The notes below the pieces were generated by a model. That model had not been told where the DNA came from. It did not search any database and was given only the letters and a program-made list of their open reading frames with translations. A program made the position numbers and the translations under genes. Shown piece by piece: positions 6,249 through 23,796 of a stretch of 64,000 nucleotides of DNA. Positions within the stretch are counted from its first letter, which is position 1, and each line of letters opens with the position of its first letter. The DNA lies in sequence record PQ843332.1; one strand, written 5' to 3'. This DNA comes from Escherichia phage P-GXEC-L2P5.

Positions 6249-6321
6249 CGATTATCTACGACGTCACAGGCCATAAAGGCGGCGGCGGCAAAGCCGGAAT
6301 CGTAACCGAGGACTTGAACGA

Positions 6322-9300
6322 ATGACGATTATCTACGACGTCACAGGCCATAAAGGCGGCGGCGGCAAACAGCACACCCCACAGGAGACGCCGGACAGCC
6401 TGCATTCGCTGGCTAAAATCCGCATCTTGCTCGCACTGGGCGAAGGTGAGTTCGAAGGCATTACCGACCCTAACGAATTACGGCAGCGCGTATACCTGGA
6501 CGGAACACCGATCCAGAACGCCGACCTGTCAGAAAACTTCCCCGGCGCGCGCGTGGAGTTCCGCCCAGGCACACAGCACCAGGACGTGATCCACGGATTT
6601 TCAGCGGTGGAAAGTGAGCAATCCGTAGGCGTAAAACTGGAAAACGGCACGCCGTGGGTGCGCCAGATTAACGACACCAGTCTTGACGCCGTGCGCATTC
6701 GAATCGGCATTCCGGCCCTGTACACCAACGAAGACAACGGCGACCTGGTGGGCGGGCGCATCGACTACAAAATCGTTGTGTATACGGACAACGCTGATCC
6801 GCGTGAGTTTACCTTCGCTGCCGTTGGTAAAACAATGTCGCTGTACGAGCGCGACCACCGCATCGAGTTACCGCCGAACGTGAATACCGGCTGGCGCGTG
6901 GAAGTTCACCGCACAACGGCAGATTCCACATCGGCGAAAGTGGTGAACGATATTCAGGTACAGTCCATCACTGAGATTATTGACGCCCGCCTGCGTTACC
7001 CGCTAACCGCGCTGTTGTTTGTGGAGTTCGACGCCAAAGCGTTCCAGAACATCCCGCGCGTGTCCATTAAGTGCAAAGGTCGCAAAGTTCTAATACCGAA
7101 CAACTACGACCCGATCAATCATACCTATGCCGGGTACTGGGACGGCACGTTTAAACGCGCATGGACGGATAACCCTGCGTGGCACTGGTACGATATTTGT
7201 ATTACTGAGCGCTTCGGCCTCGGTCGGTTAAACGCGCATGGACGGATAACCCTGCGTGGCACTGGTATGATATTTGTATTACTGAGCGCTTCGGCCTCGG
7301 TCGCCGGATCAAGCCGCAAATGCTAAACAGATATGCGCTCTACCAGATTGCGAAGCGCTGCGATCAACTGGTCAGCGACGGCAACGGCGGGCAGGAAATC
7401 CGATTTAAGAATGATATGTACATCCAGTCGCAGACCGACGCCTGGACCGTGCTTAAGGATTTAGCCGCCATCTTTGCCGGTATGACCTGGTGGGGCAACC
7501 AGATGTTGAATATTGTAAGCGATCAGCCGGTCGCAGCGGTATCGCACACTATCACCAACGCCTCGGTCATTGATGGTCGATTCGACTACGCGTCAGGGAG
7601 CCAGAAAACTCGGTATTCCACGTTCGCTGTAGCATACGGCAACCCGAAGAACCACTATGAAGATGCCATTGCTACGGGACAGCGTGTCGAACTGGTACGC
7701 CGCCATAAGATTAACCGTCTGGATATAACGGCGATCGGCTGTACGCGTGAGTCAGAAGCGCAACGCCGCGGGCACTGGGCGCTAATCTCCAACCAGCTTG
7801 ACCAGCAAGTTAGCTTTAAGGTTGGCATGGAGGGACTTTTCTTTATTCCGGGTAGTGTAGTCGCGATCGCCGATACAAACATTTCTGGCGGCTTCGAGAC
7901 ACGCGGCGGTCGCCTGTTGTCAGATCCTGGCACGCGGACTGTGCTGAACACAGACAGCGAAATCACGTTCCGCCCTGGGGATAAATTCCTGGTACGCACC
8001 GATAGCGGTAATGTGGAGACTCGCGAGATTGCCAGCGTCAACGGCAACAAGGTTACGCTAAAAACCGCACTGGACGCCGACCCGATTCCTGATCAGCCGT
8101 TTTGCGTCGATGGCAACGATATCCAGTTGCAGAAGTTCCGCATCACCGACCTGGAATATGACGACTCTACCAGCACTTTTTCAGTGCGCGGGATCGAATA
8201 CAACGATAGCAAATATGATGCCGTTGATAATGGCGCTCGCCTTGACCCAGGCATCTTTACGCAAGTTCCTGACGGCGTAATGAAGGGGCCGGAGTCCGTG
8301 ACCATTACCCCGTCGCAGATTTCATCGCAAGGCCAGCTAATCACCAACGTGGATATTGTGTTCCCGCCGGTGAAGGATGCCGTTGTTTATGAGATCCAGT
8401 GGCGACGTACCAGCTTGCAGAATATGGCGGTACAGTGGGGAAACGACTGGGTAAACATCCCCCGCACGGCATCGAACGGCGCGCACATCCCTAACGTGTT
8501 CTCCGGTAACTACCAAGCGCGCGTCCGCGCGATCGGTATGGGCGAGATTTCATCCCCGTGGGTGTCGTCCGCTATCACGCCGGTGGAAGGTCGTCTCGGC
8601 GGTCTTAACGCGCCTATCATCACCAACGCGATTTCGGGCCTTCACCAAATTTTGTGGAAGTGGAACCACAACAACGCCGCGACGGATATTTCGTACACCG
8701 AGCTTGAAGTTCGCAAGACGGGTGAAACGGAATGGAAATTCCTAACCAACGTCCCATACCCGGGGTCGGAGTATGCGCAAACGTCGCTGGAGTTCGGCAT
8801 CTATCAGCAGTTGCGCGCCCGTGTAGCGGATAAAATCGGCAACCTGTCGGACTGGTCGGCCCCGTTTGAAGGGCAGGTGAGCAGCAGTTGCGCGCCCGTG
8901 TCGCGGATAAAATCGGCAACCTGTCGGACTGGTCGGCCCCGTTTGAAGGGCAGGTGAGTGACAATGTTGACGAGTACATGAAGGGGCTGGACGACGAGTT
9001 CTTGACTTCTGAGGACGGTAAACGCTTCCAGGAAGCGATCGACACCATGCCGCAAGGCATTTATGAGGCTATGCTCACCGACGCACAGCAATTGTTTAAC
9101 GCCCGCGCCGAGTACAAGGGGATTTATGCAGAAATCTCGGTCGCGTATAACGTGGCGGCAGATGCCCACCAGGCGGTAGCGCAACTGGAAACGTTGATCG
9201 GTACTCGCCTTGACGATGCGGAAGCGGCAATCCACACGTTGCAGACCGCGCAAAGCACGCACGAGCAAGCGTTCGCCCAGTACCAACAAACTGTTGCCGC

Positions 9301-9826
9301 TAAGTTCGGTCAGCAGTCCGCCGCGATCGAGCAGAAGATGACGTCCTCGTTTAACCACTCCGGTGGTAGCGCCACATACAGCCTTAAGGCGGGTGTGACG
9401 TATAACGGTACTTACTATGATGCGGGTATGCAGCTTTCCGTTGTAACGTCGGGCAGCGCGGTTAAATCTCGTATCGCGTTCAAAGCCGACCAGTTCTACA
9501 TCATGCACCCATCTAATGGGTCGCTTTCGTCCGCGTTCATCGTCGACGGAGGACAGGTGTACATCGACACGGCACGAATCAAGAACGCGTCCATTAACTT
9601 CGCACAGATCACGGACACGCTGCGGTCTAATAACTTCGTTGCGGGGTCGTCAGGGTGGAACCTGCCTAAATCGGGTAACGCGGAATTGAACAACGTAACG
9701 GTCCGCGGCAACCTGTACGCCACATCGGGTAACTTCGGGTTTTCTGGTGGGACCGTGACGATCGACAAGACAGGCGTAAACGTGCCGTTACCTGGCGGGG
9801 GGAGGGTGAAAGTCGGGACGTGGTAA
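6322..9826 (+). CDS. host specificity / tail tip protein, lambda gpJ-like (frame broken by duplications near 7151-7304 and 8806-8959; start codon duplicated at 6245 and 6322)
   Basis: ORFs 6322-7326, 7320-8957 and 8888-9826 are contiguous, about 1,100 aa after removing duplicates; conserved gpJ-like N-terminus MTIIYDVTGHKGGGGKQHTP; position after gpI-like gene. Confidence 0.8.
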
Positions 9827-9831
9827 ATGCG

Positions 9832-9853
9832 AAGGGGCCATCCGGCCCCTTTT
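9832..9853 (+). terminator. rho-independent terminator (aaggggccatccggcccctttt), usable on both strands
   Basis: GC stem, short loop, T-run; sits between convergent genes. Confidence 0.6.
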
Positions 9854-10818
9854 CAATACATATTCGGGATGACGAGTAGCGGGGTGGGTACGGCAATATT
9901 TTTACCTGGCATCTGGAATTGCTGCCGTGAGTAGTTGCCGATGACGCGGTTTTTAGCGACGCGCACATTATTACCCGCCATGCGTATTCCGTTCATGCGG
10001 ACGTGGTTATAGCCCCCGTTGTTCTGAATCAGCGCGCCGGTGTATGAAAGCTGGATCAGGCTGTTTCCTATATTCTGGTCGCCCGTGCCGATGTTAATCG
10101 TGCGGTCATATACGAACGGCTTGTTCACCGTCGAGAACGTGACCTGATTCTGGTTATTTGTCATAGTGATCCCGGCCCCTGGCGTGGGTGGTGTATTGTT
10201 GAATATGACAAGGTCCATGTCCACCGAAGCCGCCACATCGTCGATGCCACCATAGGCCGCGTTGCGGACGATAATACTGCCACCATCGAAGCCTACTGAT
10301 ACGTTGCCGTCATCCCAGCGGGCGAACGGGACACCGCTAACGGGCAAGGCCATACTACCGTTGACGCGTACTCGCTGTGCGTATCGGCAGGTCATTAGCT
10401 TAGACACGTTGGATATGGCGGTGAAGTCCGTCGAGTTCTCCACCAGTAAGCCCGCGTTGCGTGAACCAACCGGCAGCACTTCCATTATGACGCCAGCCCA
10501 TTGTGGTAAGCCAGAGTACGCGCCATACGCATCCTCCCCGCGCAGGGTGATACCACTATTCCCGTTGCGGGTAACAGACGTAACGTAAAACGGGTCGGGA
10601 ATTACCAGGGTCTGGTCGAATACCTCAATCACTTCTACCGGGCGAGTGAGCGCGACGACGACCTGCGACCCCTCCGTAAGCGGGGTGTTAATGGTTAGCG
10701 TCTTGTTGGACTGTGCCCGCTGGTTAAAGCTGGTGCAGTATGCTGGCGCGCGAAGCCCTGCGGTGATCTCCATGCGCGGTCTTCCGTCGTTGTAGTCGAT
10801 AAGTATTCCAGCACCCAT
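9853..10818 (-). CDS. hypothetical protein, Asn/Gly-rich with beta-helix-like repeats; co-transcribed with upstream lipoprotein
   Basis: Intact 324 aa ORF; start overlaps lipoprotein stop; repeated N-x-x-(V/I)-x-N segments; absent from second genome copy. Confidence 0.45.
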   Translation of the reverse strand: MGAGILIDYNDGRPRMEITAGLRAPAYCTSFNQRAQSNKTLTINTPLTEGSQVVVALTRPVEVIEVFDQTLVIPDPFYVTSVTRNGNSGITLRGEDAYGAYSGLPQWAGVIMEVLPVGSRNAGLLVENSTDFTAISNVSKLMTCRYAQRVRVNGSMALPVSGVPFARWDDGNVSVGFDGGSIIVRNAAYGGIDDVAASVDMDLVIFNNTPPTPGAGITMTNNQNQVTFSTVNKPFVYDRTINIGTGDQNIGNSLIQLSYTGALIQNNGGYNHVRMNGIRMAGNNVRVAKNRVIGNYSRQQFQMPGKNIAVPTPLLVIPNMY

Positions 10819-10820
10819 TA

Positions 10821-11042
10821 TTACCACTCCCGTGATTTAACTGATACTGTGCCTGAGAAATTGCCGTCGCTATCTGAAGACAGCCCAGTGAATCGCATGT
10901 CCACATCTCCTGCCGGGACTTTTTGCCCATCAACGTAGCGCAACATGCAGCTACCGTACGCAACCGTAATGCACTCGCCGTTGTTGCGTTCTACGGCGCA
11001 ACCGGATAAAAGAACCGCACAAATCATAATTAAAGTTTTCAT
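10821..11042 (-). CDS. small lipoprotein, candidate Llp/Cor-like superinfection exclusion protein
   Basis: Signal peptide MKTLIMICAVLLSGC with lipobox LSGC; AGGGGA RBS; lies between gpJ-like gene and tail fibre; mature part differs completely from paralogue at 61449-61667. Confidence 0.5.
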   Translation of the reverse strand: MKTLIMICAVLLSGCAVERNNGECITVAYGSCMLRYVDGQKVPAGDVDMRFTGLSSDSDGNFSGTVSVKSREW

Positions 11043-11122
11043 GGTATCATCCCCTATATTTGGTTGAGTTTTAGTATTACACCGCTCAACCAGGATTGCA
11101 ACCAATTTAAGAGGATTTAGCT

Positions 11123-12901
11123 ATGGCAGCGGGTACGCTATCCGTAACGAACAATAGCAAGGCTGTAGTAGGGGTCGGCACAACGTTTACCGCGTTTAAA
11201 GCGGGCGACTTCTTAACGCTGGTGGTAGGACAAGTCCCATACACCGTGGCAATCGCGTCCATTGAAAGCGCAACCGCGCTCACGCTGGTACTGCCGTTCG
11301 ACGGCCCAACGGCAACCGGCCTTGCGTGGGATGGCGTTAAGCGCGATACCATGTCGCTGGCAACGATGGGCGTTACCGTACAGGCCCAAAAAGCATTGCG
11401 CTTGATGATTGCAGATGAAAACAACTGGCGTGCAATCTTCGGCGATGCTGAAGAAATCACAGTCACGCTCCCGAACGGGCAAGTTATGCAGGGTATGTCG
11501 TGGGGCTACCTGTCGTCTTTGCTGAAGGAAGTAGACCCCGTTGAGATGCGCAACCTGCAACAACAAGCCGCCGCATCGGAAGCAGCCGCGCAAGGATTCC
11601 GTAACGAGGCGGAAGGCTTCAAGAACGACGCCAACACCATCAAGACGCAGACCAGCCAACTTAAGGCAGATACGCAGGCTATCAAGGACCAAACGAATCA
11701 GATCAAGACTGACACTGGCGTTATTCGTGATGAAGCCAATACCGCGAAGGAGGACGCGCAATCTGCCCGCACTGCCGCGCAAGGATTTCGCAATGAGGCT
11801 GAACAATTCGCTAATAGTGTTAACCCGGAAAACCTACTTGCGAAGGCCAACAACTTAAGTGATGTTGCGGATGTGGCTGTGGCGCGCGAAAACATTGGCG
11901 TAGACCGCCTAACGCAAAACATAACCAGCGGCGAAACACAAATCAGGACTGCGGCGAAGAATAAATGGATCTTCGTTAAGGAAAATGGCGACTGGGGCGG
12001 GTGGGATAATGCCAACAATAAAGCCATGCCGCTGCCGATTGCATTCGGTGGTACGGGGCGCGGCGATAACGTCGCCGAGTTCCGCCAATTCAAATCAAAC
12101 GGCGACACCCAAGATGGGTTAATCATTACGCAGAACGGGTCTGGATTTGGTGGTGTATGCTGGGGGGATTCCGCCAATAAAGTACGCTGGCGCATGGGGA
12201 TTAACGACGCCGCGGGTAATTTTAAGTTGCACTCATATGACGCGTCGGGCGCGTACCGCGATACCTTTATGGAGATCTCTGGATCGGGGATAAGCGGCAT
12301 GGTGTGTCATCGAGATATCATGGTCCGCCCAACAGAGACAGTTCCAGTGTTGTCTTTCGTCCTAAACAACGGAAAAGCTACCGTCCCGGCTGGTAACGTC
12401 CGCACGATGTGGGATACGGTTAACATCAATAGTAATATAATCTATAAATATTTTGAGAAGGGAGACGGCACTGGCTTCACAGTCAACTGGCCCTCATCTG
12501 GTGGTGTTATTGCCCTCCAGGGTACATCAGGAAGGGACTTTAAGAAAGATATTACCGACGCGGACGTTACAGAAGCGGTTGCACGCATTGAACAAATGCG
12601 CATGGTGCGCTACGTGTATAAGGACGATGTGCAGGAGCGCGTCCGCTTCGGCATCATTGCCGAGGAAGCAGAAGAGATTGCGCCTCAATACATCAAACAC
12701 CGTGAGGAGACGTACGATGTGGAGGTGGACCCCGAGACTAACGCCATCGTCGGGGGTAAGACGCGCGACCGTCCGTCGGTAGACGTTAACCCTATCGTGA
12801 TGGACTTGATGGGGTGCGCACAATATGCGATCGCTGAGTGTAAACGCCTGGCGGCGGAAGTGGAGGATTTGAAAGCCGAGATCGCGGCGTTGAAGAAATA
12901 A
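11123..12901 (+). CDS. tail fibre protein with C-terminal intramolecular chaperone (peptidase S74-like) domain
   Basis: Intact 592 aa ORF; coiled repeat region; C-terminal ...RFGIIAEEAEEIAPQYIK...DLKAEIAALKK resembles the auto-cleaving chaperone domain of endosialidase and L-shaped tail fibres. Confidence 0.7.
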   Translation: MAAGTLSVTNNSKAVVGVGTTFTAFKAGDFLTLVVGQVPYTVAIASIESATALTLVLPFDGPTATGLAWDGVKRDTMSLATMGVTVQAQKALRLMIADENNWRAIFGDAEEITVTLPNGQVMQGMSWGYLSSLLKEVDPVEMRNLQQQAAASEAAAQGFRNEAEGFKNDANTIKTQTSQLKADTQAIKDQTNQIKTDTGVIRDEANTAKEDAQSARTAAQGFRNEAEQFANSVNPENLLAKANNLSDVADVAVARENIGVDRLTQNITSGETQIRTAAKNKWIFVKENGDWGGWDNANNKAMPLPIAFGGTGRGDNVAEFRQFKSNGDTQDGLIITQNGSGFGGVCWGDSANKVRWRMGINDAAGNFKLHSYDASGAYRDTFMEISGSGISGMVCHRDIMVRPTETVPVLSFVLNNGKATVPAGNVRTMWDTVNINSNIIYKYFEKGDGTGFTVNWPSSGGVIALQGTSGRDFKKDITDADVTEAVARIEQMRMVRYVYKDDVQERVRFGIIAEEAEEIAPQYIKHREETYDVEVDPETNAIVGGKTRDRPSVDVNPIVMDLMGCAQYAIAECKRLAAEVEDLKAEIAALKK

Positions 12902-12905
12902 ATAG

Positions 12906-12930
12906 AAGGGGCCATGCGGCCCCTTTTTTA
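12906..12930 (+). terminator. rho-independent terminator (aaggggccatgcggcccctttttta), bidirectional
   Basis: Perfect GC stem plus T-run between convergent genes. Confidence 0.65.
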
Positions 12931-13580
12931 GTTTGAGTTTTCCCAGTCCATTTTGCGCCGCACCAGATGGCTTTCGTAATATTCCTTGCCCTCAACTTCC
13001 ACTAAGGGCCAATCGTTAACAATCACGTACGGTTCCGCAATATCCTCAATCACGCCGTGCGCGCTTTGCGGCCCTAACGACACGCCCACCAGGATAACAC
13101 CGGCAACACGACGGGCAAGATACTCACGAGCGCAGCGCGCCTCTACCAGTCCGCGACGGATGCCGCTGGTGGCCTTAACTTCGTAGGTCCATACGGCATC
13201 GATCACATGCTCGCGGAAGTCGGGACCGGACTTCACCTTGCGCTTGCCGACCATGATGATATCGCCGCGACGGCATCGATCACATGCTCGCGGAAGTCGG
13301 GACCGGACTTCACCTTGCGCTTGCCGACCATGATGATATCGCCGCGGTCAATGGTATTGGCGCTAAACAGGCCGGTACGCATGAGCAAGCCTTGAGGAAT
13401 ACAACTGCGCCCTCCTGCCTGCCCTTCAAGATACATGCCTGCAAACATCTCGCCCAGCACACCGACCAGTCGGCTTTGCTTGCACGCGTCAGACTTTAAG
13501 CGCCACTGGTCAAACTCGATGCTTGCTATCATTGCCGCCAGGTGGAATTGTTTACCGGATATTTCATATTCGCCGTACAT
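12928..13580 (-). CDS. hypothetical protein, possible PD-(D/E)xK-type nuclease fold (frame broken by duplication near 13195-13345)
   Basis: ORFs 13233-13580 and 12928-13254 are contiguous; GDII...YEVK resembles D...(E)xK; homologue at 63627-64000. Confidence 0.3.
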
Positions 13581-13622
13581 CGTGTGGTCCTCATTGATGC
13601 GGGCCGAAGCCCTCGATTAGAA

Positions 13623-14297
13623 TTATTTCAGTGCGCCAGTCACCAGTGTTTTTTCCATGTTGCGGAAATCTTCCGGCGTCATGAGGATTTTCGATCCGTC
13701 CTCGCCAGTGAGCACGACCATAGGCTGGACGTCCTGATCTGCGATGCCAAAATTAGCGGCTTTAACAGTCTTGCCCACAGATGAAGAAGGATGCCGCGTC
13801 CCGGCGGAGGCGATGGGCCGGCCTTTGAGGCTGTCGAATTGTGCTGCCGTTGTATCGATCTGAATCTCGTCATGTACGGTCATGTAAGACTCGCCCAGCA
13901 GGGCGGCATACCGAATTGTGCTGCCGTTGTATCGATCTGAATCTCGTCATGTACGGTCATGTAAGACTCGCCCAGCAGGGCGGCATACGCCACCAGATCC
14001 ACGATGTTATCTTCCTGGTGCTTACGGTGCTGGCGCACCAGCTTCAGGCAGATCAGGAAGGTCCAGGCTTCTTGCTCTGTAAGTTATCTTCCTGGTGCTT
14101 ACGGTGCTGGCGCACCAGCTTCAGGCAGATCAGGAAGGTCCAGGCTTCTTGCTCGGACAGGTCGCGACCGGTAATCGCGTTAAACACGGCCGCGATTTGT
14201 TTAGCGCTGCGTTCTTCTTTCGCGTTGTCATAGCCGTTTTCTTTCCCGCGCTGTTCCATAGTGGTGGCGGCGTTTTTGCAGTATTCGTATGCTTTCA
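13623..14297 (-). CDS. hypothetical protein (frame broken by duplications near 13835-13985 and 14005-14158)
   Basis: Removing the duplicated units joins ORFs 14053-14340 and 13623-13883 into one ~175 aa frame; GTG start with AAGGG RBS near 14297. Confidence 0.35.
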
Positions 14298-14348
14298 CAG
14301 TATTACCCTTTTTAGTGAAGGGGCGGTATTGCCCCGACACGTTTACTA

Positions 14349-14370
14349 TAGTGCAACCAACCTATTGGTT
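14349..14370. promoter_or_regulatory. perfect palindrome TGCAACCAA-TAGG-TTGGTTGCA (operator or intercistronic hairpin)
   Basis: 9-bp perfect inverted repeat seen directly; overlaps the stop codon of the HAD-like gene; same TTGGTTGCA core recurs in other intergenic regions. Confidence 0.5.
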
Positions 14371-14909
14371 GCAAGTGAATTTTGCAACGTTTATTGCGTA
14401 AATTTTCGGGACCAAATCACCACACGCCCGACGAATTGCCGCGATGTTCTTCTCGCAATCTTCAATGATGACCAGTTCAGACACGTCCGCGTAGCAGACC
14501 ATTTTGAACACGGCGCACGCTTTAAACTCAGGCGGCGTTCAATGATGACCAGTTCAGACACGTCCGCGTAGCAGACCATTTTGAACACGGCGCACGCCTT
14601 AAACTCTGGCGGCGGGGTGTCGTCCAGCATGTGGCGCATAAACAACCGGCCTACGGGGAAGACCTCCAATTGCTCGGCGGTGGTGTCCCAGCATTCTCGC
14701 TGCCGGTTGGTCAGATATGCGATCTCGAAGCCTTGCTCTTTATACATGCGCAGTAGCGGCAGCATATCCATGTTCAGGTCTTCGCGGACGTGCGCCTTGT
14801 GCCACTTCGCCCAAAAGGTGGATTTAGTTTTTATCCCCGGCACCAGGTCGGCGCGCGCATCGCTTGATCCATTAATAACGCCATCCAGGTCACAAATCAG
14901 TAATTTCAT
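14356..14909 (-). CDS. HAD-superfamily phosphatase (polynucleotide 3'-phosphatase / nucleotidase-like); frame broken by duplication near 14460-14615, start duplicated near 14853-15005
   Basis: N-terminal MKLLICDLDGVI (HAD motif I DxDG), downstream YLTNR and Lys motifs; GAGGAA RBS. Confidence 0.55.
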
Positions 14910-14999
14910 TTCAATTCCTCAATCAAATTTGCACGAACAATTGATCCATTAATAACGCCATCCAGATCACAAATCAGTAATTTCATTTCAATTCCTCAA

Positions 15000-15182
15000 T
15001 CAAATTTGCACGAACACTACGGGCGGAAAACGTGTCACACACACAAGATGACAGCGGGCAGTCATTACAAGCCAGCCAGTAAGGTCCATGCCCAGGATGT
15101 GTTCCGGACGTGACACACGACGCACTTTGTTCTCCCTCGGGTTTATTTGGTAGCGTTTAACAATTTCGTCCACGACGCGCAT
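15000..15182 (-). CDS. hypothetical small protein (60 aa)
   Basis: ATG at 15182 follows the Dam-like stop; ends TGA at 15000; contains a Cys/His cluster. Confidence 0.3.
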   Translation of the reverse strand: MRVVDEIVKRYQINPRENKVRRVSRPEHILGMDLTGWLVMTARCHLVCVTRFPPVVFVQI

Positions 15183-15189
15183 ACTGCGA

Positions 15190-15752
15190 TCAACGACTAA
15201 GATATTCAAGGAGTTCTCCTTCGCTCATTATTTCAATTTGTGCGCTGCCGGTGGGCGGCGCTTCGTCAAAGATTATCAATTGCTGGCACTTGTTATTGCT
15301 CGGCCCGTTTCAATTTGTGCGCTGCCGGTGGGCGGCGCTTCGTCAAAGATTATCAATTGCTGGCACTTGTTATTGCTCGGCCCGACTTCGCCGGTTACAG
15401 CATGTATGAATCGGATCCGCCAGTCCAGAAGAATTATCAGGTTTGCAGTCTTCCGGGCCAGCTTCGCCCACTTCGTCGACGTGTCCTGATTCAGTAGCAT
15501 GACGGTCCGGCGTCCGTGCGCCGCGCACTCGACCCACGGCAGCGGATCGGAATACGGCGGGTTGCACCACTTCCACCCTTTCAACTCTGACCAGTCCGCA
15601 TCGAGCGCGCTGTGCTCTGCCGTGAAGTAACGCGGTAGCAGGTGGTTGGCATCGCTCGCCGCCATGTCATAACGGAATCTGTACTTCCGGCGCAGCGGTT
15701 TAAATAAAGCTGGCGGCGTGCGCCAGCTATCTTTTTGCTCACTCTTCTGCAT
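15190..15752 (-). CDS. DNA N6-adenine methyltransferase, phage Dam-like (frame broken by duplication near 15231-15382; start duplicated 15752/15829)
   Basis: WRTPPALF N-terminus and NPPY catalytic motif typical of phage Dam family. Confidence 0.65.
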
Positions 15753-15815
15753 GATCGGTACTTCCGGCGCAGCGGTTTAAATAAAGCTGGCGGAGTGCGC
15801 CAGCTATCTTTTTGC

Positions 15816-16280
15816 TCACTCTTCTGCATGGTCTGTGTCTATCGCATAAAGTGGAGTCTTACCACCTTTATTGATGACGCGCTGCACGCGCTTTGCTTCT
15901 TCGACACTAAGCGGGCGCGCGTTATGGTAGATGCTGCCGTTTGTAGGGTTGCGCCACGCCATGAGCACAAGGTCTTTACGGTCGATCTTCGTTGTGCGAC
16001 CTTTTGGGCGCACGTACTCCTCGGCACGTTTGCAATGCTCGCGCAAACCTTCGGCAGTGATGCGGTTTAGTGCAACGCTGGTTGTGTATCCGGTGCGCTG
16101 CATAATCCCCATCAATTCGAAAAGCAGTTCGAAACGCTCCTCTAGCTCCTGGCGCACTTTCTTCTCTCCTTCATATAGCGCCTGGTTGGTGTCAGCCACC
16201 GCGTTCGCACGTTCGGCCTGTTCGCGGGCTTCGAGGCATTGCGCGGCCCAGTAATTTTTCTCTTCTTGTAAAATTTTCAT
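15816..16280 (-). CDS. hypothetical protein with N-terminal coiled coil
   Basis: 154 aa ORF; stop overlaps Dam-like start; terminator immediately upstream. Confidence 0.4.
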   Translation of the reverse strand: MKILQEEKNYWAAQCLEAREQAERANAVADTNQALYEGEKKVRQELEERFELLFELMGIMQRTGYTTSVALNRITAEGLREHCKRAEEYVRPKGRTTKIDRKDLVLMAWRNPTNGSIYHNARPLSVEEAKRVQRVINKGGKTPLYAIDTDHAEE

Positions 16281-16297
16281 CGTGTCGTCTCCGGGTA

Positions 16298-16326
16298 TTA
16301 AAAAGGGCGTCCAAACCGGACACCCT
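16298..16326 (-). terminator. rho-independent terminator on minus strand (gggtgtccggtttggacgccc + ttttta)
   Basis: Stem-loop followed by T-run when read on the minus strand. Confidence 0.5.
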
Positions 16327-16328
16327 CA

Positions 16329-16361
16329 ATATAATGCAACCAATCTAATTATGCAACCAAT
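16329..16361 (-). promoter_or_regulatory. two direct copies of ATTGGTTGCA (minus-strand orientation) upstream of gene 15816-16280
   Basis: TGCAACCAAT at 16335-16344 and 16352-16361 on plus strand; same motif in at least five other intergenic sites. Confidence 0.45.
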
Positions 16362-16685
16362 TTACGAATAAAAATTTGGGTCGCGTGCAACGTCTACCAG
16401 ATACAGATTGCTGATTCGGTTGCCGTAGTGGCCTGGTGTTCGCTGGCGGCACACAACGGCGTAGCCTGGAGGAATTGTATTGCCGGTCGCGATAATCCAC
16501 GCCACGCGTGCGCCAGACAGCGTCTTTCCGTTGCATTCGATACGTGTTCCGCCGTCGGCAGTATTGATGTTGCCAATCTTGCAGCCGGTGGACTTCAGAC
16601 GAATGACGCCGGTTTTGCTGTCGTAGGAGAATAACTGGTTAGTCATTGCGACCGAAAAGTCGATGGCTTCGAATGTCGTATTCAT
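16362..16685 (-). CDS. HNH-like homing endonuclease-related protein (possibly degenerate)
   Basis: 107 aa; DGGTRIECNGKT...ARVAWIIATGNTIPPGY...GNRISNLYLV resembles NUMOD4/HNH_3 layout but lacks a clear catalytic His. Confidence 0.4.
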   Translation of the reverse strand: MNTTFEAIDFSVAMTNQLFSYDSKTGVIRLKSTGCKIGNINTADGGTRIECNGKTLSGARVAWIIATGNTIPPGYAVVCRQRTPGHYGNRISNLYLVDVARDPNFYS

Positions 16686-17531
16686 TTTAAATTTTCCTCG
16701 TTAACCGCTATCGCGAAGCCGCGCGGAGTGAGCGACCGGATTAATTTTGTGCGGGCTGATTTGCCTCCGAGGCGACTATACTGCTTCGAGTACCCTTTTT
16801 CAACGAAAACAGGTTTCTTCTCTGGCATACGGAAGCCGTTGCCGGTCCATAAGCAGGTCAGCTTCGGATATGAATCGCGGGCGTTGATGTATTCTTCTCT
16901 GGCATACGGAAGCCGTTGCCGGTCCATAAGCAGGTCAGCTTCGGATATGAATCGCGGGCGTTGATGTATTCCGGGAAGAGCGGGTGTACGTCATCATCCG
17001 GCAGATATCCCCCATACTCCCACGGGTCGAATGAGTGATCCGGTTTGCGCCACTGTGTGGAAAGCACACTGCGCGGATTCTCAATCATATACGGCACTTC
17101 GAAGAAGTCACCCAGGTAAGCGGCGATCTTCGCGGTGCGCACCGCCTTAAGCTGAAAGGCTGGGTCTTTTGCACGCCGAAGAAGTCACCCAGGTAAGCGG
17201 CGATCTTCGCGGTGCGCACCGCCTTAAGCTGAAAGGCTGGGTCTTTTGCACGCTTGCGCGGGAAAGCTGGCGCACCGCTCACTGCCAGATCCGTGCACGG
17301 AGGAAACGCATAGATGATATCTGGCGTACCGAAATCGCCATTCATCGCACGGTCTACAAAGTCCAGATCGATAAACTCATTGCGATAGCGGATTCCGCGA
17401 CCATAAATCCGGTAGTCAAGGTACGACCCGTGATCGGCTTCGGAGTAGTTGAAGCAATAACACTTATGCCCCATCTCGGCAGCACGCTCAATCATCAAGC
17501 CGCTGCCGTCAAACAATGACCAGATTATCAT
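16682..17531 (-). CDS. DNA (cytosine-5)-methyltransferase-like protein (frame broken by duplications near 16816-16971 and 17098-17253; start duplicated near 17456-17608)
   Basis: Motif I LFDGSG, motif IV PPCTD (Pro-Cys), ENP motif; ORFs 17085-17531, 16858-17142 and 16682-16927 are contiguous. Confidence 0.55.
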
Positions 17532-17604
17532 TTATAACACTTATGCCCCATCTCGGCAGCACGCTCAATCATCAAGCCGCTGCCGTCAAACAATGACCAG
17601 ATTA

Positions 17605-19329
17605 TCATTTGCGCGCCTTTTTAGCTTTCATGTATTCCATCAAGTCGTCCTGTATATCTCGCTTACTGTCGCGACGCTCGGCGACCAGTTCGTCTAGTGT
17701 TCCGCGCGCCTGGATAATGTAGACGAATACCGGTCGAGGGTGTCCGGCCTGCATCTGGCGAACCGGCCCGATACGTTCAACGATCTGCGAAAAGTGCTCA
17801 AAGTTCCAGGTATCGGAGAAGATTGCCAGGTGATGACCGCCGTCCTGCAAGTTAAGGCCGTGGCCCGCCGATGCCGGGTGTGCAAACATGATGGGGATCT
17901 CGCCCCTGTTCCACGCTTCCATATCCTTATTGCCCTGCTTACCCTTACCCAACGCGACGCCGTGCGGAAATTTCTTCTTAAGACGTGCCAGGTCATGCTT
18001 ATACTGATACGCAACGAGCAACGGCGCGCCGTTCAACTCCTCCACGATACTTTCCAGTGCGTCCAGCTTCGCGTCGTGAATCTTCACCCACTCGTCGGTC
18101 CGTTCGCCGTCTTCGTCCACCTTATACACAGCGCCGGAAGCAAGCTGAAGGCACTTAATTGTCTTCGATGCCGCGTTCGCCGCTTCCACTGTTCCGCTTT
18201 CCAGTTCGGCAAATAGCTCGCTTTCAAACTGGTCGTAAATCTTGCGGGCTTTCTTCGGCAGGTCCACAACAACCGGCGTATAGATTGGCTTGTCGCACCC
18301 GAAGTATTCAGCCGCGTCAACGGTGAGGGATACATCTGACAGACGTTGTTGTATCTCTTTCTCGGAGTTCTTTAGCGGAGCGTGCTGCATAGTGAAGCTG
18401 CCAGGCTTAACAGGCTTGCTAATGAACCAGCGGTCGGTGAATGCCTTATAGCTACTACCGAGGCGTTCACCACCGTCGACGAACCACGTCTGACCCCATA
18501 AGTCTTTCAAGCCGTTTGGTGCGGGTGTGCCGGTCAAGTTAATCCAGCGCTTGACGTGCTTATGTGCAATCGCCGCCAGTGCGCGTGCGCGCTTACTGCC
18601 CTGCTTGCTTCGATAGCCTTTCAGCTTAGTCGATTCATCGGCAACAACGACCGTAAAGGGCCACGCATCGCCGTAATAGTCGACCAGCCACTCAACCACA
18701 TCGTAGTTAACACAAACCACGTTAGCGTCGCTCTCAAGCGCCGCAATACGGTCCTTCTCCGGCCCGGTGCCGTCTACAACCAGCAGGGATGAGAACCGCC
18801 ATTTCTCCTGCTCCGGGGGCCATGTACCTGACGCAACACGCAGCGGGGCCAGCACCAGTACGCGGTCCTCATGATGGGACAGGACGCCAGTCTGGAACAT
18901 TTTATTCAGCGCCCACATTGTCGCGCCGGTTTTACCCGATCCCATTGTCGCCCAGATATTACATCGCTTATGCTTGAGGATGAACGCGGTTATCAACTTC
19001 TGATATTCGCGGCGTCGGAATCGTGCCATATCTTTATTCCGCCTTTTTCCAGACTTCGGTTTCACTGTTCCAGTTCCTTTTTGTAGCGTCGTAGTTGGTG
19101 GCGTGTCCGATGTGGACGCCTTTTTCCAGACTTCGGTTTCACTGTTCCAGTTCCTTTTTGTGGCGTCGTAGTTGGTGGCGTGTCCGATGTGGACACCAGT
19201 AGCCCGGAAGCTCTTAAATTTTTGCCAGCACACCGTCAACGGCAGCGGGTCATTCATGCCAGCAATAAACCACACGCGATCGCCCGGTTTGCATTCGCCC
19301 AGCTTGGTGAGTCGGTAATGTTCTTTCAT
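17605..19329 (-). CDS. superfamily 2 DNA helicase (DEAD/DEAH-like N domain + helicase C domain); N-terminal region carries duplication near 19070-19160
   Basis: Walker A ATMGSGKTGA, DEST box (VVADESTKL), helicase C motifs (HPASAGHGLNLQ); start choice from GGGAGA RBS. Confidence 0.75.
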   Translation of the reverse strand: MKEHYRLTKLGECKPGDRVWFIAGMNDPLPLTVCWQKFKSFRATGVHIGHATNYDATKRNWNSETEVWKKASTSDTPPTTTLQKGTGTVKPKSGKRRNKDMARFRRREYQKLITAFILKHKRCNIWATMGSGKTGATMWALNKMFQTGVLSHHEDRVLVLAPLRVASGTWPPEQEKWRFSSLLVVDGTGPEKDRIAALESDANVVCVNYDVVEWLVDYYGDAWPFTVVVADESTKLKGYRSKQGSKRARALAAIAHKHVKRWINLTGTPAPNGLKDLWGQTWFVDGGERLGSSYKAFTDRWFISKPVKPGSFTMQHAPLKNSEKEIQQRLSDVSLTVDAAEYFGCDKPIYTPVVVDLPKKARKIYDQFESELFAELESGTVEAANAASKTIKCLQLASGAVYKVDEDGERTDEWVKIHDAKLDALESIVEELNGAPLLVAYQYKHDLARLKKKFPHGVALGKGKQGNKDMEAWNRGEIPIMFAHPASAGHGLNLQDGGHHLAIFSDTWNFEHFSQIVERIGPVRQMQAGHPRPVFVYIIQARGTLDELVAERRDSKRDIQDDLMEYMKAKKARK

Positions 19330-19449: not shown

Positions 19450-19623
19450 TTATTTTTGTTCTGCACGGTAGCGGCGCTGCCGTTCGCGCTCTTTCTTATT
19501 GCGGCACGATTTGCACTCTGCCCGATACCCGTCTGGACTGCGCGCAGTCTTACCGGTGTATTTGTGGAACTGGGATAGCGGCTTTACACAGCCGCAATTA
19601 CTACAACGTTTTTCTTCAATCAT
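19450..19623 (-). CDS. small zinc-ribbon protein (CxxC...CxxC), hypothetical
   Basis: MIEEKRCSNCG...ECKSCRNKKERERQRR; GAGGA RBS before ATG 19623. Confidence 0.4.
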   Translation of the reverse strand: MIEEKRCSNCGCVKPLSQFHKYTGKTARSPDGYRAECKSCRNKKERERQRRYRAEQK

Positions 19624-20607: not shown

Positions 20608-23600
20608 CTACTTGCGGTATCGATACATACAATCGCCCTCTGCGGCAAGTGGGAAGCCTTTCGCCCAAATCGGCAGGTCGCACATCAGCGCGCAAAGTTC
20701 CTCGGTCGTGTAGTCGTCAGTGTCCGGCACTTCGGTGATCAATTCATCGTGCACTGACAGGACGATTTCATAGCCCGCAGCTTCAACGCCAGGCATGGAC
20801 CACGCGAGAATATCGCGACACAACGCTTGCACGATGTTCTCCGTAAGTTTGCCGCCGTAGGTGTACTGGAATCCCCACTGGCGCGTCGTCTGATTCTCGC
20901 CCTGATATTTGATGCGGGTACTGGTGCGCTTCTTGCCGGTGTCTTCGTCGATCTCGGTCGTGACAGACAGTGCGATGCCGGGGTAGCTCATGATGCGCCC
21001 CGACGGCAACTCAATTTTTAACCACCACCCCGCGGCGTTCGGGTCGTCGCGCTCCTCGTCAAAGGTTGGGTCGTGCTTCGCCTTCGTACGGACAATCTTG
21101 AGCGCTTTTCTACCGTCCGGGCGAACGTTCGCACCAGCCCAGTATGCTTTGCCCGGATTGCGGATTGCACACAACACCGCGTCCTCAAGCTCGGCCCAAA
21201 AGGCTACCGTCTTCGGGTGAGCCTCACGCCACATACGTTTGATCGCGTCACAAGTAAGCCATACGTTTTTCGGCAGTATGTAAGTCGGGCGCTCGTCCTT
21301 CTTGCCCGGCTTCGGTGGGCGTTTCGCTTCGTTAATGCGGGCGTACTCATAACCGCGCTTCGCCGCCGCCCAAATGTGATCCGGGAACGTGCCTTTCATC
21401 ACGTCCGCCATAGTGTAAAGGTCGAGTCCCAGGTTTTTAGCGAACTGCAAGAACGCCGCGACGCCGCCACCATAGCCCAGGCCAAGCTCGCAGTTATGCG
21501 CCACCAGAAAACCAGACTTAGACGCAATAAGGAACCGGTTTCCGTCTTCCACATCAATCAGGTCGTAAACCGGCTCGCAATAGGTTAACTTCCCGTTCCA
21601 GTTCAGCAATGCGGGTAAGGGCTTCATCGTACTTTCTCTGAAGCTCGGGCACGCTGCGCCGGTTACGGCAGTTTTCCGAACGGCTGACAAACCGAAGGTT
21701 TCCAGGCTCATAGTTGCCGTCTGTATCGATCCGGTCCATTTCGAAGTCGGGATTATCCCAGCCGTCCAGCGTTTGAACGTAGAGAAGAAACGACCTTTTA
21801 TCTCTCTTCCATTCGTCACATACGGCAATCCCACGACTGCCGTAGTTTTTATACCCTTTGGCGCGGGGGTTTGTCGTTCGTGATATTGCCGCTGACAGCC
21901 GGTTGAGCAGCCGCGTTCTGTGCGCATCGTCTGGCATTGCGTCATCGTAGCAAAAATACTGTTTACGATACCGCTTTGTCGCTTCAATTGCGCAGAGGTT
22001 GCATTGGGATGTTTTACCCCTTCGGACGTTGTCATACCCGACGCGTCCTGGCATCGCTCCGCAATCACATTGGGCCAGCAGTTGTCTGTGCCCCTGTCGT
22101 TTTGGTAATTCGCGCAGGATAACCAGGCGTCCATACCTCTCGCCAGGGCGCGGGCCATCGTGCACCTGTCTGAAACGAGTTGCCTTGCCTCCTTCCATGA
22201 ATGCGTCAAGATTTTGTGGTCTTCTGTCATCAAGACCCCGTCCACGTCTATCACTGGTTTCCACCCCATAAGGTGCGCGCCTTGTGTACTCACCCATTTT
22301 TCGCCGTTCCATACTTTATCCGTTGATGTTACGGCCATAATATCCTTGAACCCGCCATTGGTCAATACTTGGGTATGGCGGTGCAAGCAAGCCTTACCGA
22401 TCTGGCGTAAGTCCTTGCGGTTAGCTTTAATGTAATCCGGGTCCAGGCCGAACATTTTACCGGCAGTCTCGCAATAAATATCGCGACCGGCCTTAAACAC
22501 CATTAACGCGGTTTTCTCGCCAGCGACCCAGGCAAGGCCGCGCCCTTCCACGTTGGAGTAGTCCGCGACGACAAACTTCTTGCCCTTAGCCGGAATGATG
22601 CACCCGCGAACGGTCGAGGCGGTTAGCTTCGATATGTCATACGCCCAGTGCGCTGTCCCGCGTAACAGGGAGTTGATGCCGTTGGTGAGCATGTGCGACC
22701 GAACCCAAAACGAGACGTCGCTTTCACCCTCGCGGCGTTTAATCTTCCCTTCGTGGTCGTCGCTGTACTCGCCACGCGCCAGGTTTTGAGGTTGAAAGCC
22801 TTTACCGGCCCAGCGTAGCGTGCGCTTTGCCCCACCATACTGAAGACACCCACGGCGGCGACCATCTGCGGATAAGCCGTTAACTAGCGGATTGTACTTA
22901 GTCGATGCCGTTGATGACGCTCCGAGGCGCATTTCTATAAGCGCTTTGCCTTCGTCGGGGAAGTCCGGGTCTTCAAGCAGGTCGTTAAGTGTGGATTTCT
23001 GCGCGTTGTGGATTGTGAACGCCGGGGCGATATCACGCAGGATTGGCAGGAAGTCATTGCCTGTCAGTTTACCACCAAATCGCTCCCAGGCTTCTTCCTT
23101 CAATTCTTCCTTATGCGCCTGCACCGCTTTGATCGCGGCGTTCGCCAGGTCAACGTCGACGTAGAAGCCGCGGTCGTTAATCAACTGGTCGATGAGCAGG
23201 ATTTCATCTTCCTTAGGCGAGTTTCCCCAGTCCGGTATGCGCCAGTAGACTTCACGCATTGCGATAATATCCAGCGCGGCATAGCGCAGAAATTTGGCCC
23301 ATTCTTCCGGGTGAGTCTCGCGAGTGTAGCGGCGGATTTTGTAGGTCTTAGGGGTAGGCTTACAGAATCGGTTAATCAGCGCCTTGCCTGCCTTATCCTT
23401 CGCGTGCTCTGCGTCAACGCCCAGAACCTGGCACTGCATATCGAGGCTACCGGGCAGCGCGTGGCGAAAGGCCATAATCATAGTGTCTTCGATCTGGCTT
23501 ACCGGCAGGTCAATACCCCACTTCTCGCGGATAACCAGGCGGTCAAACAGGAGGCCGTTAGCCATCACTATTTTAGCCTTCTTGCGGGATACCCGGCGGA

Positions 23601-23796
23601 GCGCCTTGCGCAGTTCACGCGGCATTGTGGGGGATTCAGTGGCATCCCATGTCTGCACGCGGCCCTCGTCTATGGCGTAGGTGCAAATCATAATCTCTGT
23701 GGTTGGGTGCTCCGCGTAGGCGTACGCCCCAACTTTCTTCAGGTCCACCCCGCTAAATGTCTCGGTGTCGAGAAACAGGCGTTCGAAGTCTTTCAT
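20608..23796 (-). CDS. family A DNA polymerase with 3'-5' exonuclease domain, interrupted by an in-frame intein
   Basis: Intact 1062 aa ORF; exo motif FLDTETFSG; motif A VVADYSNVEGRG; motif B split as RQIGKA/intein/CELGLGYGG; motif C VHDEL. Confidence 0.85.
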   Translation of the reverse strand: MKDFERLFLDTETFSGVDLKKVGAYAYAEHPTTEIMICTYAIDEGRVQTWDATESPTMPRELRKALRRVSRKKAKIVMANGLLFDRLVIREKWGIDLPVSQIEDTMIMAFRHALPGSLDMQCQVLGVDAEHAKDKAGKALINRFCKPTPKTYKIRRYTRETHPEEWAKFLRYAALDIIAMREVYWRIPDWGNSPKEDEILLIDQLINDRGFYVDVDLANAAIKAVQAHKEELKEEAWERFGGKLTGNDFLPILRDIAPAFTIHNAQKSTLNDLLEDPDFPDEGKALIEMRLGASSTASTKYNPLVNGLSADGRRRGCLQYGGAKRTLRWAGKGFQPQNLARGEYSDDHEGKIKRREGESDVSFWVRSHMLTNGINSLLRGTAHWAYDISKLTASTVRGCIIPAKGKKFVVADYSNVEGRGLAWVAGEKTALMVFKAGRDIYCETAGKMFGLDPDYIKANRKDLRQIGKACLHRHTQVLTNGGFKDIMAVTSTDKVWNGEKWVSTQGAHLMGWKPVIDVDGVLMTEDHKILTHSWKEARQLVSDRCTMARALARGMDAWLSCANYQNDRGTDNCWPNVIAERCQDASGMTTSEGVKHPNATSAQLKRQSGIVNSIFATMTQCQTMRTERGCSTGCQRQYHERQTPAPKGIKTTAVVGLPYVTNGREIKGRFFSTFKRWTAGIIPTSKWTGSIQTATMSLETFGLSAVRKTAVTGAACPSFRESTMKPLPALLNWNGKLTYCEPVYDLIDVEDGNRFLIASKSGFLVAHNCELGLGYGGGVAAFLQFAKNLGLDLYTMADVMKGTFPDHIWAAAKRGYEYARINEAKRPPKPGKKDERPTYILPKNVWLTCDAIKRMWREAHPKTVAFWAELEDAVLCAIRNPGKAYWAGANVRPDGRKALKIVRTKAKHDPTFDEERDDPNAAGWWLKIELPSGRIMSYPGIALSVTTEIDEDTGKKRTSTRIKYQGENQTTRQWGFQYTYGGKLTENIVQALCRDILAWSMPGVEAAGYEIVLSVHDELITEVPDTDDYTTEELCALMCDLPIWAKGFPLAAEGDCMYRYRK
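21493..22389 (-). mobile_element. intein (299 codons) inserted in polymerase motif B
   Basis: Block A CLHRHTQVLTNGG, block B DGVLMTEDHKILT, block F/G VYDLIDVEDGNRFLIASKSGFLVAHN followed by +1 Cys; removal restores RQIGKACELGLGYGG. Confidence 0.7.
21554..22198 (-). CDS. HNH homing endonuclease encoded in an alternate frame inside the intein
   Basis: ORF 21554-22312 in a different frame from the polymerase; GERYGRLVIL...QCDCG...GKTSQCNLC and GYKNYGSRGIAVCDEW...DRIDTDGNYEPGNLRFVSRSENCRNRR match the common phage HNH family; ATG at 22198. Confidence 0.6.
   Translation of the reverse strand: MEGGKATRFRQVHDGPRPGERYGRLVILRELPKRQGHRQLLAQCDCGAMPGRVGYDNVRRGKTSQCNLCAIEATKRYRKQYFCYDDAMPDDAHRTRLLNRLSAAISRTTNPRAKGYKNYGSRGIAVCDEWKRDKRSFLLYVQTLDGWDNPDFEMDRIDTDGNYEPGNLRFVSRSENCRNRRSVPELQRKYDEALTRIAELEREVNLLRAGLRPD

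Follow-up and report, generated by a model that had tools for sequence, protein, structure and literature searches.

The window, by which we mean the whole 64,000-nt stretch of Escherichia phage P-GXEC-L2P5 (PQ843332.1) that was analysed, carries at 15190–17531 a gene for a phage-type adenine methyltransferase and a gene for a small C5-cytosine methyltransferase, both on the minus strand, with two further minus-strand genes lying between them and tandem duplications of 77 nt cutting into the region (Table 1). The genes are named here after their counterparts gp29 to gp32 in Sodalis phage SO-1 (NC_013600, Dhillonvirus SO1), and "collapsed" means that one copy of each 77-nt duplicate was removed before ORFs and proteins were compared. 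Once collapsed, the region agrees with SO-1 gp29–gp32 at 99.5% identity over 2200 nt, and 80% or more of it is covered in 143 phage records. The collapsed proteins gp29 and gp32 match their counterparts in SO-1 at 100% identity, and the SO-1 annotation agrees gene for gene, with the same order and overlaps, the sole difference from the window being the duplications together with a segment-wise variation in identity. In all likelihood, we are looking at gp29–gp32 of the minus-strand replication-module operon of what is essentially Sodalis phage SO-1 (Dhillonvirus).

Table 1. Genes and 77-nt tandem duplications of the methyltransferase region, in window positions
Feature	Position	Strand	Remarks
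gp29, phage-type N6-adenine DNA methyltransferase (Dam)	15190–15752	-	161 aa collapsed; duplicate start codon at 15829
77-nt tandem duplication	15231–15384		2 x 77, 100% identical; in 3' part of gp29; frameshift
77-nt tandem duplication	15677–15830		97% identical; spans gp29 start and gp30 end
gp30, function unknown, coiled-coil-like N-terminal half	15816–16280	-	154 aa; ORF intact in raw window
gp31, degenerate HNH_3/NUMOD-like	16362–16685	-	107 aa; start overlaps gp32 stop codon (ATGA)
gp32, mini C5-cytosine DNA methyltransferase ("phage Dcm" family)	16682–17531	-	231 aa collapsed; duplicate start codon at 17608
77-nt tandem duplication	16815–16968		100% identical; within gp32
77-nt tandem duplication	17094–17253		within gp32; register 17094–17247 (97%) or 17100–17253 (100%)
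77-nt tandem duplication	17457–17610		100% identical; spans gp32 start and end of gp33 helicase gene

Duplications of 77 nt and the gene content of the region

Scanning the window revealed 80 tandem-duplication loci with a period of exactly 77 nt and none at the other periods between 70 and 90 nt. Every one of them marks the point where one blastn segment gives way to the next, the two sharing 77 nt in SO-1 coordinates; genes throughout the genome are struck without preference. The duplications are absent from SO-1 and from the approximately 150 other Dhillonvirus genomes compared. The largest default k-mer of SPAdes is 77, and the duplications fit an artefact of a k=77 assembly graph. Moreover, identity to SO-1 is uneven between the blastn segments (98.7–100%), which suggests that the path taken through the assembly graph mixes strains. 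All this points to the window sequence being a corrupted, mixed-strain path. It is hardly conceivable that the duplications are real and that both methyltransferase genes of this genome are frameshifted pseudogenes; they are present in the raw window and both ORFs are indeed disrupted there, yet the single period with its empty neighbours, its coincidence with the assembler's k-mer, the segment junctions with their differing identities, the indiscriminate damage to genes and the absence from related genomes all stand against it.

Five of the 80 duplications fall in 15190–17531, and both methyltransferase genes are frameshifted. The 563 nt spanned by gp29 are 486 nt plus one artefactual copy of 77 nt, and the 850 nt spanned by gp32 are 696 nt plus two such copies, while the start codons of both genes are doubled by the duplications at 15677–15830 and 17457–17610. 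In the raw window, the C5-like gene falls apart into ORFs of 148, 94 and 81 aa and the Dam gene lacks its true C-terminus. A search for the broken 148-aa ORF found no record of it. Thus, the two genes do lie where the first-pass annotation had placed them, but the 77-nt duplications leave neither as an intact ORF; likewise they are set apart as it had said, but by 852 nt in the real genome rather than by about 1 kb. The frameshifts of both methyltransferase genes are assembly artefacts and not biology, and any ORF-level reading of the window requires that the duplications be collapsed first.

The methyltransferase gene pair itself is already known. The SO-1 record lists the two as N6-adenine and C5-cytosine methyltransferases and places a "putative HNH endonuclease" in the gap. 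The same pair is annotated in more than 100 Dhillonvirus genomes in addition to SO-1, such as KarlBarth (Bas17) with its "Dam-like" and "Dcm-like" genes. The two enzyme families count about 1500–1750 phage records each, and the pair, being ordinary for Dhillonvirus, is of little weight as a discovery. The genes from gp26 to gp38 encode replication, repair or unknown-function proteins, and both methyltransferases are surrounded by replication genes (SNF2 helicase, DNA polymerase). The only nuclease-like genes in this stretch are the degenerate gp31, the VRR-NUC gene gp36 and the HNH gene gp37; no cognate restriction endonuclease stands beside either methyltransferase among gp26–gp38, and both are therefore taken as orphan enzymes. 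The label "Lar-like restriction alleviation" given to SO-1 gp35 was set aside, Pfam giving it no backing. A promoter and terminator scan of 14900–17700 gave counts no higher than in shuffled sequence, and no operon boundaries could be called from it.

The phage Dam gp29 and the two intervening genes

gp29 matches the phage Dam family PF05869 over residues 3–138 with 124.2 bits (cut-off 28.1) and PHROG 111 with 5.5e-56, and scores 88.2 bits against the NCBIfam phage Dam equivalog (TIGR01712), under its cut-off of 97.05. Dam genes from T1-like and Stx phages share 30–37% identity with it, those from Stx phages 37%; a sequence search of the PDB gave no matches. The protein carries a DMAAS motif (15654–15668) and an NPPY motif at residues 64–67 (15552–15563), through which it would transfer the methyl group to the N6 of adenine. 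For M.EcoVT2Dam of the Stx2 prophage VT2-Sa, a GATC target was reported (PMC6602927), and GATC is by analogy the most probable target of gp29.

Between the two methyltransferases, the first-pass annotation had seen a single degenerate HNH-like ORF. Such an ORF is present and it is degenerate, but it is not alone, as both gp30 and gp31 lie there. gp30 has no match in Pfam or NCBIfam, and the name "DNA ligase", which it bears in the RefSeq/SO-1 record and which PHROG 10530 shares, is without support. gp31 reaches 13.1 bits against Pfam HNH_3 (PF13392; cut-off 24.8), covering only profile positions 5–21 of 46, and matches PHROG 99 with 1.5e-16. Where histidines would be expected from the HNH_3 consensus, gp31 has A59 (GARVAW) and C79-R80 (VVCRQ), which would then be the catalytic positions. 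Conservation of gp31 is 80–100% across some 157 records of Dhillonvirus and about 40% in Edwardsiella phages; no homologue turned up in any other group.

gp32, a mini C5-cytosine methyltransferase

Motif I of gp32 is FDGSG (residues 7–11; 17499–17513), motif IV is FPPCT with PPC at 17295–17303, and motif VI is IENP, so that the motifs quoted from the raw sequence, like NPPY in gp29, are indeed there on the minus strand. In C5 enzymes, motif I (FxGxG) binds SAM, the Pro-Cys of motif IV bears the catalytic cysteine and the Glu of motif VI (ENV) protonates cytosine N3. In the 36 homologues that were aligned, whose lengths all run from 225 to about 250 aa, residues F7, G9, S10 and G11 of motif I, P77, P78 and C79 of motif IV and E125, N126 and P127 of motif VI are invariant, and so are K172 and the segments LGGK and RSLTPRG. 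The motif VIII position holds no QxRxR and is occupied by a strand, YPK(K/L)TCLW, whose Y170, K172, T174 and W177 are invariant. Only about 30–40 residues (~183–213), made of loops and two short helices, separate this strand from the motif IX-like RSLTPRGF, which confirms the earlier remark that an ordinary target-recognition domain is missing. gp32 is most probably a pared-down C5 catalytic domain, in which FDGSG binds SAM, Cys79 of PPC is the catalytic residue, Glu125 belongs to ENP and a loop of 30–40 residues with a conserved LGGKSxxTK replaces the target-recognition domain.

The structure model was made with a 99% identical protein, P0001, as stand-in for gp32 (AlphaFold pLDDT 91.7). When it was compared with the PDB by Foldseek, 31 of the 33 best matches, including the top 31, were DNMT3A, DNMT3B or MET1, with E values down to 2e-7. 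The predicted fold of the catalytic domain is that of a C5-cytosine DNA methyltransferase. Two methyltransferases of different classes are accordingly encoded, as had been proposed from the motifs, one by its 124 bits on PF05869 and the other by its C5 fold and motifs.

gp32 matches PHROG 757 (E 3.8e-82), its homologues fall into 2669 clusters at E <= 1e-3, and 1511 phage records have one. Of the Pfam families matched by its relatives, PF00145 alone recurs, with weak matches in 33 of 60 (best E 1.3e-6), and gp32 itself stays below Pfam detection, with no PF00145 match at E <= 0.1. Neither single-sequence nor profile searches of Pfam, NCBIfam and PDB gave anything significant for gp32, the best being motifs I–IV of M.HaeIII at E 0.93. 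Orthology to E. coli Dcm was considered and rejected: hhalign of the family profile against K-12 Dcm aligned only 26 columns at motif IV (E 0.16, probability 0.4%), and "Dcm-like" is therefore to be read as a functional label. This mini-Dcm family is thus widespread and, as a retron trigger, consequential, yet missed by such searches.

Evidence on activity comes from a relative. gp32 shares 53% identity from end to end (E 8e-86) with the Dcm of phage KarlJaspers (Bas06, Drexlerviridae; bas06_0055, 236 aa), which is itself nearly identical to the Dcm of phage K42, the enzyme with which experiments were done. K42 Dcm places 5mC on msDNA, as detected by LC-MS, and the quadruple mutant in C82, E128, K175 and K176 yields no 5mC; the authors of the retron paper regarded K175 and K176 as residues that bind the substrate. 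C79, E125 and K172 of gp32 align with C82, E128 and K175, whereas the second lysine of the pair, K176, is Leu173 in gp32. gp32 probably makes 5-methylcytosine, to judge by this family, and the first-pass annotation, which had left both activity and specificity open, is largely answered on the former and only partly on the latter. It is very improbable that gp32 is no DNA methyltransferase at all, being instead a generic Rossmann-fold protein or a C5-like enzyme with another cofactor (carboxy-SAM) or substrate (RNA). The missing Pfam, NCBIfam and PDB sequence matches would suit such a protein, but motifs I, IV and VI show no variation, the leading fold matches belong without exception to DNA C5 methyltransferases and the homologue family just described gave 5mC on DNA.

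As for its target, gp32 probably acts within CCWGG, by analogy with two other phages. K42 Dcm triggers the retron Ec86/Eco1, for which it is sufficient alone in vivo, and the Ec86 response requires a CCTGG site. Virion DNA of Pantoea phage AAS23, which has a PF05869 Dam and a C5 methyltransferase without recognised domain (gp52, a possible member of the gp32 family), resists MboI and EcoRII, and the EcoRII resistance fits CCWGG methylation. A minority possibility that we take seriously is an active C5 enzyme whose specificity is not simply that of the host Dcm, being relaxed, directed at the other or at both cytosines of CCWGG, or biased towards hairpin or single-stranded DNA. Several observations lean that way: the small domain is replaced by just 30–40 residues or so, the best structural matches, DNMT3A and DNMT3B, recognise only CpG via short loops, similarity to E. 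coli Dcm is undetectable beyond motif IV, and changing either C of CCTGG abolishes the defence. Furthermore, the retron experiments were carried out in dcm+ MG1655, where the empty-vector control showed little 5mC on msDNA before the phage enzyme was expressed, which indicates that the phage enzyme does something that the host Dcm does not. Against these weigh the AAS23 result and the need for a CCTGG site, and the difference between host and phage enzymes could also stem from enzyme level or from access to the retron complex.

Perhaps, and here we are speculating on what is rather improbable, the whole family of phage "Dcm" proteins of about 230 aa reads DNA via the LGGKSxxTK loop and an insertion of 35 residues that lies between motif VI and motif VIII, conceivably as a DNMT3-like dimer, with a specificity or substrate preference different from that of the host Dcm, and gp31 of Dhillonvirus and Eiauvirus would be a catalytically dead, domesticated DNA-binding partner. 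If true, a specificity of the mini-Dcm that differs from that of Dcm would explain why the retron Ec86 responds to the phage enzyme and not to the host Dcm. The idea that mini-Dcm enzymes as a rule require gp31 for their specificity, as a subunit, was discarded, as homologues of gp31 occur in only 161 phage records against the 1511 of the mini-Dcm and K42 Dcm acts without help in vivo.

Role of the two methyltransferases and comparison with known systems

The proposal that the methyltransferases serve against restriction dates back to 2011 for related phages, and this role is plausible for both enzymes here, by analogy with those phages. gp29 and gp32 would be expressed with the replication genes, so that newly made phage DNA would be methylated independently of the host Dam and Dcm and might be guarded against restriction enzymes cutting unmethylated GATC or CCWGG. 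The cost of gp32 would be that retron Ec86/Eco1 senses the mini-Dcm family as its trigger. Overall, we consider it likely that gp29 and gp32 are two orphan mini methyltransferases of Dam and Dcm type that self-methylate the phage genome to an anti-restriction benefit, whose targets, timing and benefit we infer. The SO-1 genome holds 172 GATC sites (observed/expected 0.80) and 154 CCWGG sites (0.96), and neither is avoided; this is compatible with self-methylation and does not discriminate. Our literature search found no methylome data for SO-1 or any Dhillonvirus.

It is unlikely, though by no means far-fetched, that the two enzymes serve mainly another end, Dam blocking MutH nicking or timing replication and packaging, and 5mC acting in regulation or in some other form of counter-defence. 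The E. coli strains that usually serve as hosts are dam+ dcm+ themselves, so that phage enzymes of the same specificity would add little protection there, and both genes are placed in the replication module. In the BASEL study, moreover, Dhillonviruses were comparatively sensitive to the restriction-modification systems tested, and methyltransferase genes showed no simple link to the restriction phenotype in related Drexlerviridae. However, GATC and CCWGG are not targets of the systems tested in that study. Further against such a role, the adenine and cytosine module is retained across genera even where the C5 enzyme is of unrelated type. In Edwardsiella phage eiAU-183 (Eiauvirus), a helicase, a gp31-like protein, a C5 methyltransferase and a PF05869 Dam form a block syntenic with that of Dhillonvirus, but the C5 enzyme there is of the canonical PF00145 type, has 330 aa and is located after the gp31-like gene, whereas the mini-Dcm of Dhillonvirus precedes gp31. 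The eiAU-183 enzyme is thus a non-orthologous replacement of gp32, and the persistence of the module despite this swap argues for selection on modification itself.

Compared with known systems, gp29 shares NPPY, small size and orphan status with the phage Dam family PF05869 (T1 Dam, Stx M.EcoVT2Dam), and with 161 aa it is shorter than the Dam of KarlJaspers (233 aa). gp32 is about 100–240 residues shorter than the canonical PF00145 enzymes (M.HhaI, M.HaeIII, E. coli Dcm/M.EcoRII) and DNMT3A/3B. The canonical C5 methyltransferases possess a separate target-recognition or small domain that gp32 does without, and show PCQ in motif IV and QxRxR in motif VIII where gp32 has PPCT and YPK(K)TxxW. The K42/KarlJaspers Dcm is of similar size to gp32 and likewise devoid of a target-recognition domain, but its genomic context differs in that it has no gp31-like neighbour.

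Duplications and identity of the region

Tandem duplications of 77 nt run throughout the window; repeat searches returned two copies per locus, 94-100% identical, and a scan of the whole window found 80 period-77 loci (median spacing ~500 nt) and no tandem duplications at periods of 70, 73, 75, 76, 78, 79, 81, 85 or 90. As 77 is not divisible by 3, the reading frame shifts at each duplication, and the duplications explain the repeated peptide stretches shared by neighbouring ORFs in 12-21 kb (ORF listing). In the raw window, a frameshift is seen in every gene struck by one. The five within the methyltransferase region broke the C5-like gene into three pieces (148, 94 and 81 aa) and removed the true C-terminus of the Dam-like gene (ORF listing); the spans of 563 and 850 nt in the first-pass annotation equal the true gene lengths of 486 nt plus one 77-nt copy and 696 nt plus two.

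Features of the methyltransferase region and its surroundings
Feature	Window position (strand)	Length	SO-1 annotation
gp29	15190-15752 (-)	161 aa	N6-adenine methyltransferase
gp30	15816-16280 (-)	154 aa	'DNA ligase'
gp31	16362-16685 (-)	107 aa	'putative HNH endonuclease'
gp32	16682-17531 (-)	231 aa	'putative DNA cytosine-C5-methyltransferase'
gp33			SNF2-type helicase
gp35 equivalent	~19450-19623 (-)	57 aa	'Lar-like restriction alleviation protein'
DNA polymerase ORF	20608-23796 (-)	1062 aa	
77-nt duplication in region	15231-15384		
77-nt duplication in region	15677-15830		
77-nt duplication in region	16815-16968		
77-nt duplication in region	17094-17247		
77-nt duplication in region	17457-17610		
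77-nt duplications elsewhere (examples)	296-449, 13193-13346, 24847-25000, 56820-56976		

Removing one copy per duplicated locus restored a tightly packed minus-strand operon in which stop and start codons overlap, agreeing gene for gene with the annotation of Sodalis phage SO-1 (NC_013600, Dhillonvirus SO1). Over 2200 nt of collapsed sequence, identity is 99.5% with SO-1 and ~91% with many coliphage Dhillonviruses; 143 records cover 80% or more of this stretch. The proteins encoded by gp29 and gp32 match their SO-1 counterparts at 100% identity, and in phage KarlBarth (Bas17) both genes go by the names 'Dam-like' and 'Dcm-like'. The first-pass reading of two methyltransferase genes of different classes is broadly correct, yet the pair, although real, is already known, since the SO-1 and KarlBarth records name both genes. 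Where a single intervening ORF had been proposed, there are two, gp30 and gp31.

By blastn, the raw window aligned to SO-1 as a chain of ~85 segments, each starting, in SO-1 coordinates, 77 nt ahead of the end of the preceding one, with identity differing between successive segments; the duplications are each located at a junction with this 77-nt overlap. Identity to SO-1 is 97-100% at 1-24056 and only 82-94% at 24056-64000. The window spans SO-1 from 11148 through the record end/start to 23930 (~1.28 genome lengths), and the shared part, the tail-gene region, is present twice (1-14800 vs 49000-64000) in copies only ~90% identical. Because of these differing segment identities and dissimilar tail-gene copies, at least two Dhillonvirus strains are mixed in the window. 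The duplications are an artefact, as arises if k=77 assembly-graph edges of a mixed-strain sample are joined with their overlaps untrimmed; 77 is a standard SPAdes k-mer. The one new result on the window is negative, its sequence being a corrupted, chimeric assembly path.

The two methyltransferases

Gp29 matches PF05869 (phage Dam) with 124.2 bits (cut-off 28.1), PHROG 111 at 5.5e-56 and NCBIfam TIGR01712 with 88 bits, slightly under the equivalog cut-off of 97, and carries NPPY at residues 64-67. It is 37% identical to Stx-phage Dam genes and 30% to the Dam of T1-like phage KarlJaspers. GATC is the reported target of M.EcoVT2Dam from an Stx2 prophage (PMC6602927) and, given the PF05869 match and the Stx-phage homology, is likely that of gp29 as well.

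Sequence searches of gp32 against Pfam, NCBIfam and PDB gave no match, PHROG 757 'DNA methyltransferase' (3.8e-82) being its sole library match. A homologue search returned 2669 clusters; the 120 matches listed were all at most 252 aa, the full-length ones 225-252 aa. Invariant in the alignment are FDGSG (motif I), PPC with Cys79 (motif IV), ENP with Glu125 (motif VI), Y170-x-K172-x-T174-x-x-W177, LGGK and RSLTPRG. PF00145 was matched weakly by 33 of 60 relatives (best E 1.3e-6), and no second family recurs. The AlphaFold model of a protein 99% identical to gp32 was confident (pLDDT 91.7, pTM 0.90), and its best 31 Foldseek matches were DNMT3A, DNMT3B or MET1. Between the motif VIII-like strand and the motif IX-like segment there are only ~30-40 residues, which bears out the earlier view that the protein lacks an ordinary target-recognition domain.

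Orthology to E. coli Dcm was considered and rejected: the gp32-family profile aligned with it at motif IV alone (E 0.16), and 'Dcm-like' is therefore a functional label, not a statement of orthology.

Intervening and neighbouring genes

The name 'DNA ligase' for gp30, given in RefSeq and in PHROG 10530, looks like an unsupported annotation; gp30 had no match in Pfam or NCBIfam, and no ligase motifs were seen. Gp31, a degenerate HNH-like protein, matches PHROG 99 'HNH endonuclease' (1.5e-16) and Pfam HNH_3 only as a sub-threshold fragment, with Ala and Cys-Arg at the positions expected to hold the catalytic histidines. It occurs in essentially every Dhillonvirus (80-100% identity, ~157 genomes) and, outside this genus, was found only in Edwardsiella phages (~40% identity). 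Such a distribution marks a fixed core gene, unlike a mobile homing endonuclease, and suggests a domesticated, non-nuclease role.

The polymerase ORF is continuous at 1062 aa, compared with 763 aa for the KarlBarth polymerase, and its family A domain (DNA_pol_A) was recognised by Pfam in part only. Its extra ~300 aa open with CLHRH and close on VAHN before a C, ends which look like intein boundaries; in the SO-1 record this stretch is described as a 'type I self-splicing intron' that contains an HNH gene. The Cys-rich gp35 equivalent lies ~2 kb upstream of the methyltransferases; a Pfam search did not support its Lar-like label.

Probable role of the pair and known systems

No restriction enzyme was found beside gp29 or gp32, which are therefore orphan methyltransferases; both lie in the replication module. 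In the SO-1 genome, neither GATC (172 sites) nor CCWGG (154 sites) is avoided. That genome does strongly avoid CTGCAG, the PstI site (1 observed vs 11.9 expected), and GGCC is moderately depleted (observed/expected 0.67). The pair most probably serves to methylate the phage's own DNA during replication, with gp29 and gp32 acting independently of host Dam/Dcm; this would shield the DNA from GATC- and CCWGG-specific restriction, at the price that the C5 enzyme would be sensed by retron Eco1. In the BASEL study, Dhillonviruses were comparatively sensitive to the type I-III systems tested, and methyltransferase genes of Drexlerviridae were not simply linked to restriction phenotype (PMC8594841).

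A preprint on retron Ec86 examined the 711-bp 'Dcm' of phage K42, whose genome is 95.4% identical to KarlJaspers (Bas06); escape mutants had this gene disrupted, LC-MS detected high 5mC on msDNA when it was expressed but not with a C82A/E128A/K175A/K176A mutant, and mutating the msDNA CCTGG site abolished defence (10.1101/2023.08.16.553469). Gp32 is 53% identical over its full length (E 8e-86) to the product of the 711-bp Bas06 gene, with C79, E125 and K172 aligned with C82, E128 and K175. Thus, activity of the phage Dcm family, to which gp32 belongs by full-length homology, is demonstrated. Evidence for CCTGG/CCWGG specificity of the family is indirect; a dcm+ host was used, in which control msDNA carried little 5mC (10.1101/2023.08.16.553469).

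Pantoea phage AAS23 encodes a PF05869 Dam and a C5 methyltransferase without recognised domain, and its virion DNA resists MboI and EcoRII (PMC8004638). In Edwardsiella phage eiAU-183, for which the authors of the eiAU genome paper proposed restriction avoidance by these genes in 2011 (PMC3025963), the syntenic block holds a helicase, then a gp31-like gene, a canonical 330-aa PF00145 methyltransferase and a PF05869 Dam, these last three at L007:2860-4882 (a stretch of this phage). The pairing of adenine with cytosine methylation is conserved while the C5 enzyme has been swapped, a non-orthologous replacement within a conserved module.
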